Below, in pieces: positions 9,755-55,135 of a stretch of DNA of 64,000 nucleotides. The notes below the pieces were generated by a model that saw only the letters and a program-made list of their open reading frames with translations, was not told the origin of the DNA and did no database searches. Where the stretch lies: NCBI GenBank assembly GCA_951406725.2, contig OX597839.1, forward strand, positions 16,616,001 to 16,680,000, read 5' to 3'. The translations under genes were made by a program, and so were the position numbers. Numbering within the stretch: the first letter of the stretch is position 1; every line of letters starts with the position of its first letter. This stretch comes from Octopus vulgaris (lineage: Eukaryota).

Positions 9755-9922
9755 ATGGTTGAAATAATTCCAACACACGTGAAGGATGTCTACATCTGCC
9801 ACATTAAGCAGTTCAAAGACCATCGTGGAAAGCTCTGTGAATTATTCAACATGGTCAAATATCCAGAAGAAATTAAAAAATTCTTCCCAGTTCAACAGAT
9901 TACTTGGGTGACCAATAGAAAA
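9755..9922 (+). CDS. RmlC-RmlD coding exon 1 (RmlC N-terminus)
   Basis: [56 protein letters not shown], followed by donor gtaaga. An acceptor (catttcag) ending at 9728 suggests an upstream 5'UTR exon. Confidence 0.88.
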
Positions 9923-54900: not shown

Positions 54901-55135
54901 CAAATTTGGTAAAATTCAGACATTCTAGAGAAGCTTCTTCTTTGTTGTAATAAAATGCACAACATGATGACAGCTGTATCATAAAATATATAATCATGAT
55001 ATAAGTATATATAATTGTTTTATTTCTATTTTTAGCAAGGAATTCCCAGAATTCAAGTTCCATAATGTATCCGCTGCTGTTAAGGATTGGCAAACTAAAC
55101 AAATGAAGGCTGGAAAGTTCTTGTCTGAATTCTAA
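9755..55135 (+). CDS. Spliced RmlC-RmlD fusion protein (putative bifunctional NDP-4-keto-6-deoxyglucose 3,5-epimerase / 4-reductase), 11 coding exons, 507 aa
   Basis: Hand-spliced exons: 9755-9922, 16217-16441, 16845-17046, 21481-21598, 27585-27690, 30247-30391, 35181-35305, 48715-48810, 50497-50625, 53099-53208, 55036-55135. All introns are GT-AG; phases 0,0,1,2,0,1,0,0,0,2 give one open frame ending in TAA. RmlC motifs: DHRG, RGLH, KLLTC..G.VYDVVVD.R, LSEEN..QLLVP, HG, VVY, DWP, SEKD. RmlD motifs: [70 protein letters not shown]. Confidence 0.93.
12147..15283 (+). mobile_element. Ty3/gypsy LTR retrotransposon, internally deleted
   Basis: Two CCHC gag knuckles; pol with LVDTG protease, YIDD RT, RNase H (DAS/TDS/NKAD) and integrase core ([15 protein letters not shown]). 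PPT followed by 3' LTR 14974-15283 (TG...CA). GGGTG TSD at 12142-12146 and 15284-15288. Confidence 0.95.
12268..14187 (+). CDS. Gypsy pol (PR-RT-RH) ORF
   Basis: 639-aa ORF with the motifs above; integrase is in a separate ORF (14250-14960) after a deletion/frameshift. Confidence 0.85.
   Translation: MRPGKRPRGSCCLSNFPLKRVEALLETLPLIDVEAEGESFKALVDTGCTTTLVTSRVTKEWNGVCSVRAVDGSEICCRGSSKVEIVVRGATLRLQAIVAERVINGVDVVMGMDAINCLGGVSVVGNEVTFGSVGALCTASQDRQREQSPARDCAAYTIEDKDFQAAFDGQRWTIEWKWKDEPPTLENRVSCYQHTLKGHARVEFEDEVERWIEEGVLVPWKEEVAGGVLPLMAVVQPTKGKVRPVPDFRELNQHISCHTGGEATDVCGEALRKWRQSTEAATIVNLRSAYLQLHVSDKLWRYQLVRYQGRTYCLTRLGFGLNSAPKIMAAVLRSVLGKDGKIRKATSSYIDDILVDETVVPADEVVRHLEKFGLIAKPPEPIEGGAVLGLKLRRDRSGELVFRRGNEIPELSSSVSRRELFSVCGKLVGHYPIAGWLRTACSYTKRRAEGERWGDKVGEGTVAMMQEILERTRAEDPVRGNWYVPKTKCETIWCDASSIAIGVVLAIEGTAVEDAAWLRKADDFNHINVAELDALLKGVNLALKWGLRTIEMRTDSATVLGWVGSVITGDRRVRTKGAAEMLVKRRQGVLGELVAEFGLKLNVVFVPSEKNKADVLTRVKRAWLEEPEECRLECGVLVG
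15358..15700 (-). mobile_element. Penelope-like GIY-YIG endonuclease remnant
   Basis: Minus strand: [19 protein letters not shown]...SGH...C...FP...R.NKE.TF..KYKPRFN. A related C-terminus ([17 protein letters not shown]) lies at ~37500-37600. Confidence 0.75.
16217..16441 (+). CDS. RmlC-RmlD coding exon 2 (cupin core)
   Basis: tttcccag|[75 protein letters not shown]|gtaagc; typical RmlC core. Confidence 0.95.
16845..17046 (+). CDS. RmlC-RmlD coding exon 3 (RmlC end, linker, start of RmlD Rossmann fold)
   Basis: tttctag|[67 protein letters not shown]|gtgagt. Confidence 0.93.
17095..17408. mobile_element. piggyBac-like MITE
   Basis: ttaa|cctcttgacata...tatgttaagagg|ttaa; TTAA TSD. Confidence 0.75.
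18465..18862 (+). mobile_element. Non-autonomous Helitron
   Basis: a|TC start, subterminal hairpin cccgagcaacgccggg, CTAG|t end. Confidence 0.75.
19050..19987 (+). mobile_element. Internally deleted Helitron carrying the C-terminus of its PIF1-like helicase
   Basis: ORF 19224-19865 has [52 protein letters not shown] start, hairpin and CTAG|t end. Confidence 0.9.
20790..21425 (+). mobile_element. CR1-like LINE 3' fragment
   Basis: [20 protein letters not shown]...ERL..LG...HFFT; (att)n tail ends just before the exon 4 acceptor. Confidence 0.75.
21481..21598 (+). CDS. RmlC-RmlD coding exon 4
   Basis: tttctag|(V)[38 protein letters not shown]|gtaggt; completes the GQVG glycine-rich motif in matching phase. 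Confidence 0.88.
22127..27389. mobile_element. pogo/Tc1-type MITE (TA TSD) interrupted by a LINE
   Basis: TIRs ta|ccgtaaatcctcgagtata ... tatactcgaggatttacgg|ta. Confidence 0.8.
22405..27335 (-). mobile_element. Near full-length Tx1/L1-like LINE (frameshifted)
   Basis: ORF1 pieces 26039-27297. APE endonuclease (LNVRGL, ETR, YAPN, GDFN, IDR) and RT ([29 protein letters not shown] in place of YADD), with several frameshifts. Confidence 0.9.
27585..27690 (+). CDS. RmlC-RmlD coding exon 5
   Basis: ttacag|(K)[35 protein letters not shown]|gtttgt; matches the RmlD KPDVVINxAAxTxVDxCExE pattern. Confidence 0.9.
27998..28490. repeat. Diverged ~134-bp tandem repeat, ~3.5 copies
   Basis: Repeated gaccat(t/c)ccat...cagacat..tgtatc...gttc..attcagc...tgatcc/tgattcctgat. 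Confidence 0.7.
28838..29690. mobile_element. Penelope-like remnant with direct and inverted terminal copies
   Basis: Direct repeat 28838-28900 / 29315-29380; inverted repeat ~29238-29337 / 29379-29480; decayed ctgatga...gaaac on the minus strand. Confidence 0.55.
30247..30391 (+). CDS. RmlC-RmlD coding exon 6
   Basis: ggcag|[48 protein letters not shown]|gttagt; STNYIF corresponds to RmlD STDYVF. Confidence 0.9.
30543..32965 (-). repeat. 117-bp tandem array (~21 copies) derived from a SINE tRNA-like head
   Basis: Unit gctgagtggactggagcaacatgaaatgaagtgtcttgctcaagaacac...catcctaaccatta. It continues a SINE body at 30425-30543 and is homologous to SINE heads at 21835-21960 and 52830-52955. 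Confidence 0.92.
33815..34170 (+). mobile_element. RTE LINE 3' fragment
   Basis: LRWYGHV...GRGRPRKTW...REKTRQD; nearly identical to the end of the ORF at 60699-62522. Confidence 0.85.
35181..35305 (+). CDS. RmlC-RmlD coding exon 7 (YxxxK)
   Basis: ttgtag|(A)[41 protein letters not shown]|gtgagt. Confidence 0.93.
35371..35872 (+). mobile_element. Tc1/mariner deletion derivative
   Basis: TA-flanked TIRs; remnant [29 protein letters not shown]. Confidence 0.8.
36760..36797 (-). ncRNA. Minimal hammerhead motif, U3-A8 variant
   Basis: Minus strand: cag-UUGAAAA-gguc ucaaaau gacc-GAAAC-cg-GUA-cug. Confidence 0.6.
39013..39103 (+). ncRNA. Type I hammerhead motif (sense to the host pre-mRNA)
   Basis: ttttag-CUGAUGA-guacgggaca...uguccuuguau-GAAAC-gauu-GUA-cuaaaa. 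Confidence 0.65.
40180..40805 (+). mobile_element. CR1-like LINE 3' fragment
   Basis: Homologous to the minus-strand copy at 40888-41510; (aaaatc)n tail. Confidence 0.85.
40888..43352 (-). mobile_element. CR1-like LINE ORF2 (frameshifted, 5' truncated)
   Basis: TRAGNTLDL...[48 protein letters not shown]. Confidence 0.9.
44337..44719 (-). mobile_element. Non-autonomous Helitron
   Basis: 5' half matches 19050-19290 and 3' half matches 18730-18862; TC...hairpin...CTAG. Confidence 0.8.
47858..48561. repeat. (TCTA/TCTG)n microsatellite
   Basis: Direct reading of the sequence. Confidence 0.95.
48715..48810 (+). CDS. RmlC-RmlD coding exon 8
   Basis: tttccag|[32 protein letters not shown]|gtaaga. 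Confidence 0.88.
50497..50625 (+). CDS. RmlC-RmlD coding exon 9
   Basis: tcatag|[43 protein letters not shown]|gtaagt. Confidence 0.9.
50765..51150 (-). mobile_element. tRNA-derived SINE (related copies at 58443-58735, 59311-59605, 63550-63855)
   Basis: Head ggaggcgcaatggcccagtggttagggcagcggactcgcggtcgtaggatcgcggtttcaattcc. Confidence 0.8.
52291..52392 (-). ncRNA. Canonical type I hammerhead ribozyme motif
   Basis: Minus strand: aac-CUGAUGA-guggcuauauuua...uaaauauagccac-GAAAC-acgu-GUC-guu, with a perfect 13-bp stem II. It lies between inverted arms ~52135-52290 and 52422-52585. Confidence 0.8.
53099..53208 (+). CDS. RmlC-RmlD coding exon 10
   Basis: tttcag|[36 protein letters not shown]|gtaagt; PAxRP is typical of the RmlD C-terminus. 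Confidence 0.9.
55036..55135 (+). CDS. RmlC-RmlD terminal coding exon 11
   Basis: ttttag|(R)[38 protein letters not shown] at 55158-55163. Confidence 0.82.

Follow-up and report, generated by a model that had tools for sequence, protein, structure and literature searches.

A 64,000-nucleotide stretch of the Octopus vulgaris genome (GenBank assembly GCA_951406725.2, contig OX597839.1, positions 16,616,001 to 16,680,000; hereafter the window) carries on its forward strand, at window positions 9755..55135, an intron-rich gene whose product joins an RmlC cupin to an RmlD-type short-chain dehydrogenase/reductase (SDR). We consider this fused protein (RmlCD) to be probably (roughly 0.65) a cytosolic bifunctional nucleoside diphosphate (NDP)-4-keto-6-deoxyglucose 3,5-epimerase/4-reductase that would complete an animal NDP-L-rhamnose route, most likely to uridine diphosphate (UDP)-L-rhamnose. 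The initial annotation of the window had proposed rhamnose synthesis by such a fused enzyme, fed by the dehydratase TGDS. This is still the best reading, since TGDS is present in the genome and the catalytic residues are intact, and the product is a prediction from the sequence.

The proposed frame was confirmed: 11 exons between 9755 and 55135 join into 1524 nt, encoding 507 residues and one terminal stop with no internal stop. All 10 introns begin with GT and end with AG, their phases agree, and the spliced product is identical, letter for letter, to O. vulgaris CAI9741286.1. Mapping of cephalopod proteins, found by an exon-2 search (three named among eight matches), onto the window gave 11 coding exons. 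The cupin (residues 1 to 180) lies N-terminal to the SDR (residues 186 to 507) in a single polypeptide, and the fusion junction falls within exon 3, which makes the mistaken joining of two neighbouring genes impossible. Single exons already match the two expected Pfam families, exon 2 the RmlC family (PF00908, E 2.5e-24) and exon 7 the RmlD family (PF04321, E 5.4e-07). We infer the splicing of the octopus gene from these features; a search of sequencing runs listed no holder recorded as RNA, and for a query of 861 bases, half of it exon, 14 presumed-RNA runs contained 0.48 to 0.51 of its words and were not counted as evidence.

All exons lie on the + strand. Coding exon 1 (9755..9922, residues 1-56) encodes the N-terminal arm of RmlC with D22, R24, Q48 and the dimer strands (PF00908, E 3.9e-4). 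Exon 2 (16217..16441, residues 57-131) encodes the cupin core with the codons of H63 (16235-16237), K69 (16253-16255) and Y129 (16433-16435), and exon 3 (16845..17046, residues 132-199) the end of RmlC, the linker and the first RmlD strand, with D170 at 16959-16961 and S194, which replaces the first glycine of the cofactor motif, at 17031-17033. The RmlD Rossmann fold is encoded by exon 4 (21481..21598, residues 199-238), and RmlD continues in exon 5 (27585..27690, residues 238-273) and exon 6 (30247..30391, residues 274-322), where T301 (30328-30330) is followed by N302 in place of the usual aspartate and an inserted loop begins. The YxxxK motif is found in exon 7 (35181..35305, residues 322-363; Y339 at 35231-35233, K343 at 35243-35245) and the substrate-binding part in exon 8 (48715..48810, residues 364-395). 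Exon 9 (50497..50625, residues 396-438), exon 10 (53099..53208, residues 439-475, with a KRP motif) and exon 11 (55036..55135, residues 475-507 and the stop TAA) complete the frame. At the 5' side of coding exon 1, the stretch 9729..9754 (+ strand) could be 5' untranslated sequence or a short N-terminal extension, and O. sinensis isoform X1 has a 10-residue extension at this position. The AG acceptor at 9727-9728 indicates that an upstream exon is probably present. A GTAAGA donor at 8383-8389 is a candidate that could close a 5' untranslated exon joined to the acceptor at 9728.

The seven catalytic positions named in the initial annotation, H63, K69, Y129, D170, T301, Y339 and K343, were all found. 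The four cupin residues line up with conserved positions of Salmonella RmlC 1DZR, whose catalytic roles are established. RmlC dimers have been structurally solved. A homodimer model of the octopus RmlC domain scored 0.82, as against 0.00 for the best of three controls, with at least 95% contact agreement between runs and a predicted local distance difference test score (pLDDT) of 92. Among microbial proteins, 20 of 30 solved pairs reached the mark for this score, as did 1 of 23 single chains; among eukaryotic ones, 17 of 29 pairs did. A homodimer formed through the N-terminal strands is predicted, with a score that may reflect memory of the solved RmlC dimers.

In the reductase, T301, Y339 and K343 correspond to the Salmonella triad T104/Y128/K132 (PMC4832382) and are retained in both O. 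vulgaris copies of the gene (the second is described below) and in Argonauta. The cofactor motif GxxGxxG, however, reads S-S-K-G-Q-V-G, and STNY stands for STDY; the initial annotation was right about the triad and did not remark on these departures. The first glycine is serine (G194S) in both O. vulgaris copies and Argonauta, as opposed to glycine in the remaining 10 of the 13 aligned proteins. The change of STD to STN (D302N) is restricted to the same three octopod sequences of the 13, and octopods have a loop inserted behind the STNY strand. The AlphaFold model contains both folds (mean pLDDT 86.4, predicted template modelling score 0.89), and its comparison with RmlD structures gave TM-target values up to 0.91.

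The genome also holds the dehydratase that the initial annotation had suggested as a partner. A TGDS/RmlB-type gene with TGGAGF, STDE and YxxxK motifs lies at C3:60.63-60.65 Mb (60628800-60654400, + strand), and an inverted second TGDS/RmlB-like copy at C3:60.78-60.82 Mb (60777000-60817700, - strand). The YxxxK exon of the second copy was not found, its expected interval being occupied by a run of 100 N. The TGDS pair forms an inverted duplication that parallels the RmlCD duplication. Both copies have a histidine at the place of DesIV Tyr208, a residue tied to UDP preference in the accessible text of PMC9741107. Zebrafish Tgds yields UDP-4-keto-6-deoxyglucose; the accessible part of the same report calls the vertebrate downstream pathway unidentified (PMC13080230). 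No RmlA was seen by an exon-wise search of the genome, which can miss genes, and the six PF00483 matches look, by their motifs, like GDP-mannose pyrophosphorylase and eIF2B genes. The TGDS product, according to a 2025 report, is said to rescue UXS1. Given the TGDS histidine and the search without an RmlA hit, a UDP route appears more likely than a deoxythymidine diphosphate (dTDP) one, so that the TGDS-fed part of the initial proposal stands and its dTDP option is the less likely. Two UGP-type genes were found, at C2:8469417-8470673 and C17:69.34-69.38 Mb, about 66-88% identical by exon. The C2 gene is intronless and retrocopy-like, with a 523-residue open frame from stop to stop, and one UGP copy might differ in nucleotide choice. 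At C30:16058265-16070551, three near-identical short-chain dehydrogenase exons form a tandem and inverted cluster.

In the route that we propose, a UGP-type enzyme would supply UDP-glucose, and the C3 TGDS-type dehydratase, judging by homology, would convert it to UDP-4-keto-6-deoxyglucose. With its catalytic residues in place, the cupin homodimer would then invert C3 and C5, His63 acting as the base and Tyr129 as the acid with the assistance of Lys69 and Asp170. The SDR, likewise with its triad present, would reduce C4 with NAD(P)H via Thr301, Tyr339 and Lys343. The fusion would hold the unstable keto-sugar near the second active site. By analogy with the nematode cuticle, our guess is that the rhamnose might be used in skin, mucus, egg coat or other surface glycans.

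The initial annotation described the gene correctly and missed a full second copy just outside the window. This paralogue lies on the minus strand at C26:16710077-16681956, tail to tail with the first gene and about 11 kb past its stop. It has the same 11 exons without an internal stop and shows 88.8% amino acid identity. These two are the only loci in the genome with PF00908 above the cut-off, and both are fused; one weak match was seen on C7 (E 8). Exons 2 and 6 with their flanks are 97-100% identical between the copies (the two exons themselves 100%), whereas exon 4 is the most diverged (76% nucleotide identity), and this mosaic suggests patchy gene conversion. The ratio of nonsynonymous to synonymous changes (dN/dS) is 0.43 overall, 0.29 in RmlC and 0.47 in RmlD, and it is below 1 in every region having synonymous changes (exon 9 has five amino acid changes and no synonymous one). 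Judged by these ratios, the paralogues are under purifying selection. The reductase domain contains 49 of the 57 amino acid differences, and 51 of the 57 are also seen between the two O. sinensis copies, indicating that the differences are old and have been kept. Pieces from O. bimaculoides fall in both paralogue clusters, and three Octopus species retain the two copies. In our reading, the gene was duplicated in Octopus. The longer N-terminus of the database model of the paralogue (P0034) was rejected as an annotation artefact, being a recurrent stretch that resembles an antisense long interspersed nuclear element (LINE).

Several observations weigh against an L-rhamnose-forming enzyme. The octopus protein misses the equivalog cut-offs of TIGR01221 (113.2 vs 155.75 bits) and TIGR01214 (172.4 vs 224.05 bits). 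Both cut-offs are likewise missed (113.7 and 205.4 bits) by P0084, a Prymnesium-like protein that, compared by eye, matches at its ends the codon-optimised gene from Prymnesium in the accessible supplement of PMC6556577, and the octopus protein is only 33% identical to P0084. The top Foldseek match of the model is human MAT2B, slightly ahead of RmlD, and its Protein Data Bank (PDB) relatives include heptose and allose enzymes, showing that RmlC and RmlD folds serve other sugars. The octopod changes G194S and D302N could alter or weaken the reductase. TGDS is weak evidence alone, since vertebrates have TGDS without a rhamnose pathway. Neither a rhamnose mutarotase nor a GH78 rhamnosidase was matched in the exon-wise genome search, and the genome yielded no identified rhamnosyltransferase. 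Our literature search returned neither a report that cephalopod tissue contains rhamnose nor any assay or product, and the RmlCD protein is not among the matches listed in one octopus ink proteome table.

These points bear differently on the alternatives. The one that survives best, which we hold to be unlikely, is that the epimerase/reductase is active and that one or both copies make another 6-deoxyhexose (6-deoxy-L-talose via the opposite C4 stereochemistry, or a single-carbon epimer) or use another NDP-sugar. Changes near the cofactor and the catalytic threonine that are specific to octopods, the loop after the STNY strand, the other-sugar enzymes among the PDB relatives, and the concentration of paralogue differences in the reductase (49 of 57), mostly shared with the O. 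sinensis pair (51 of 57), would all fit such a shift. The sole characterised member of the clade, however, makes L-rhamnose, the cupin motifs agree with those of P0084, and dN/dS stays below 1 wherever synonymous changes exist (which leaves out exon 9, with its five amino acid changes and none synonymous). A catalytically dead octopod reductase, serving as a regulatory or scaffold module of the MAT2B kind while the cupin works alone or neither domain works, we judge to be very unlikely. Both O. vulgaris copies and Argonauta keep the Thr/Tyr/Lys triad, and a distinct MAT2B-like gene on C5, its identity resting on motif reading, scores higher on PF04321. That gene is 26.5% identical to the RmlD domain and, in a quick tree where it has a long branch, lies outside the 96-support clade of that domain, so that the RmlCD protein is not a MAT2B orthologue; G194S in the Rossmann motif, the Foldseek match and the MAT2B naming in RefSeq and UniRef point the other way. 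Slightly less probable still is a housekeeping role, in which the enzyme drains or recycles reactive TGDS-made UDP-4-keto-6-deoxyglucose, with rhamnose not built into glycans: the missing transferase, mutarotase, rhamnosidase and tissue record would suit it, but epimerase plus reductase would exceed the needs of clearance, the gene was duplicated and neither copy was lost in three Octopus species, and most TGDS-bearing animals seem to be without RmlCD.

The initial annotation placed the enzyme in an animal that was apparently an octopus, and the gene was found to occur also in other cephalopods, amphioxus and a tunicate. A full-length protein search gave 23 matches, with O. vulgaris, O. sinensis, Argonauta hians, Sepia pharaonis and Styela clava as the five named animals. 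A profile search of 1.84 billion representatives had a small group of fused proteins at its top; 23 of its best 150 matches were looked up, comprising one Branchiostoma (B. belcheri and a floridae hybrid), two green algae (clusters of Micromonas and of Pycnococcus/Pseudoscourfieldia), one Styela and 19 without an organism name. The animal range is a lower bound, as clusters hide members and the word-indexed search missed Branchiostoma. In the Sepia cluster, full-length 503-residue members occur on short Logan contigs (longest 1.8-2.8 kb), which points to spliced cuttlefish transcripts. In a protein-atlas search, the fusion clusters were bacterial, viral or unlabelled only. The range found in animals is patchy rather than that of a widespread, characterised metazoan family, and we found no study of an animal copy. 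These proteins often bear MAT2B as an incorrect name in databases, and RefSeq and UniRef give that name to the octopus protein. One protein of the same clade, P0091 (868 residues), has in addition to RmlC-RmlD a C-terminal domain resembling, by motif reading, a DegT-type aminotransferase or dehydratase.

A careful tree of fused sequences was built from 31 rows chosen from the matches, fragments being left out. The eukaryote-type RmlCD proteins formed one clade as opposed to the bacterial-type fusions (100/99), and P0084 fell inside it with the octopus protein. Cephalopods grouped with protein P0004 (100/98) and then with Branchiostoma (90/97, unstarred), and Styela stood apart on a long branch without strong support. 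Keeping all seven together was not rejected (approximately unbiased test, p 0.168). The quick cupin tree placed all seven together (87); the careful cupin tree placed Branchiostoma and Styela away from the cephalopods at an open fork, with the octopus protein in the eukaryote-type clade (100/96). One quick reductase tree put cephalopods with Branchiostoma at 96, and another left cephalopods unplaced. From these topologies, one origin for the cephalopod and amphioxus copies is slightly favoured, and the trees neither establish nor rule out that every animal copy goes back to a single origin. The gene may be old and have been lost many times, or it may have passed from eukaryotes to animals more than once. 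It appears to go back at least as far as the common ancestor of octopods and decapods, and the RmlCD lineage to which it belongs is eukaryotic and includes algal members.

A recent bacterial or viral transfer into the octopus alone was rejected, the best prokaryotic and viral matches being unfused and 24-41% identical. No prokaryotic or viral donor was found: none of 159 RmlC frames at 156 prokaryotic or viral loci, picked by clade motifs, was fused, and a viral fold search gave generic SDR and RmlC matches only. One stand-alone RmlC from a viral contig and one from an actinobacterium lie inside the cupin clade, so a distant link stays open. Stand-alone RmlD-like proteins, probably prokaryotic, are nested in the reductase clade.

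Contamination was ruled out by host repeats in the introns, by the 41-Mb contig C26 that holds the locus and by orthologues in other species. The argument of the initial annotation from host transposons was thus borne out, and the intact paralogue under purifying selection and the cephalopod orthologues likewise mark a genuine octopus chromosomal gene. The introns carry long terminal repeat (LTR), LINE and Helitron-like repeats. Intron 1 contains GC-rich LTR-retrotransposon pol-like frames of 639 and 238 residues (12268..14960, + strand; protease, RNase H-like and integrase), a host repeat, and intron 4 a LINE with endonuclease and reverse-transcriptase pieces (22643..27300, - strand). A tandem array of 117-bp units (about 20 of them, 97% alike) follows exon 6 directly in intron 6 (30542..32967, no strand assigned) and is common to the paralogue. 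Within the window, positions 19185-19865, 22643-27300, 41760-42719 and 60699-62528 hold a Pif1/Helitron-like fragment and three LINEs that contain reverse-transcriptase frames, and AT-type microsatellite tracts of up to about 2.5 kb occupy intron 7 at 35850-36760, 39230-40230, 43300-47560 and 47800-48600.

In animals, rhamnose counts as a non-self sugar. If our reading is true, animals would have a second rhamnose route, apparently independent of that of nematodes, in the fused RmlCD that cephalopods and two groups of invertebrate chordates carry. Animal TGDS would thereby gain a natural successor enzyme among invertebrates, and the MAT2B label in databases is corrected. A bolder scenario, which we regard as speculative and rather doubtful, is that a full UDP-L-rhamnose pathway (TGDS and fused RmlCD) was already present in the last bilaterian common ancestor. 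Cephalopods, amphioxus and some tunicates would still run it and put rhamnose on their own glycans, vertebrates and most animals would have lost RmlCD and kept an orphan TGDS, and the octopus paralogues may have split into different deoxy sugars.

Our literature search, with most subscription journals outside its coverage, returned no paper on animal RmlCD. The RmlCD accessions are not among the 12 genes of the O. bimaculoides horizontal gene transfer (HGT) set in the accessible part of PMC6011040, and no such enzyme term occurs in the main text of an amphioxus HGT paper (PMC13350694) or in a Ciona paper (PMC13390645). Gaglianone et al., in the accessible text, mention cupin matches from unnamed 'lower metazoan' sources in passing. 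The octopus protein resembles bacterial RmlC (PF00908, TIGR01221; 1DZR) and RmlD (PF04321, TIGR01214) in folds, catalytic residues and predicted RmlC dimer, but falls below the equivalog cut-offs and lacks a visible RmlA partner in the octopus. Bacterial-type RmlC-RmlD fusions, reported in 69 of 21,964 genomes (bioRxiv 854612, accessible part), form a branch separate from the octopus clade. MAT2B shares the RmlD-like fold and is the source of the database names, whereas its chains have 323-334 residues and no cupin. The NRS/ER (UER1) and RHM enzymes of plants, fungi and viruses share the presumed net reaction on UDP-4-keto-6-deoxyglucose; however, one SDR site does both steps there without a cupin, and only a weak match was obtained (4QQR, E 3.3e-4).

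According to the accessible part of Pandey et al. (PMC10473587), nematodes are the only known metazoans that encode a rhamnose pathway; Octopus, Sepia, Branchiostoma and Styela are not named in the supplements. The nematode RML pathway is likewise an animal NDP-L-rhamnose route with a cupin epimerase, but RML-1 to RML-4/5 are encoded by separate genes and dTDP-linked, and RML-3 is nested, in the analysis of Pandey et al., among bacteria near Chlamydiales. None of our searches returned a nematode sequence under a name. The octopus enzyme, in contrast, is fused at both RmlC loci of the genome, groups with algae in trees that include no nematode sequence, and is probably UDP-linked. Its closest counterpart is the RmlCD fusion of Prymnesium parvum, which makes TDP- and UDP-L-rhamnose (Wagstaff et al. 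2019, PMC6556577); in the accessible part of that work, a survey of algae, the fusion is found mainly in haptophytes and Gymnodiniaceae. The fused architecture, which the initial annotation had offered as a novelty, is known and biochemically characterised in Prymnesium, and it is common in bacteria; what is new is the host, not the architecture or the enzyme chemistry. Through the by-eye look-alike P0084, the two proteins agree in domain order, size, clade-specific cupin motifs and membership of the eukaryotic clade, whereas the octopus gene differs in its animal host, its 10 introns, its tandem paralogues and the octopod G194S, D302N and loop insertion.

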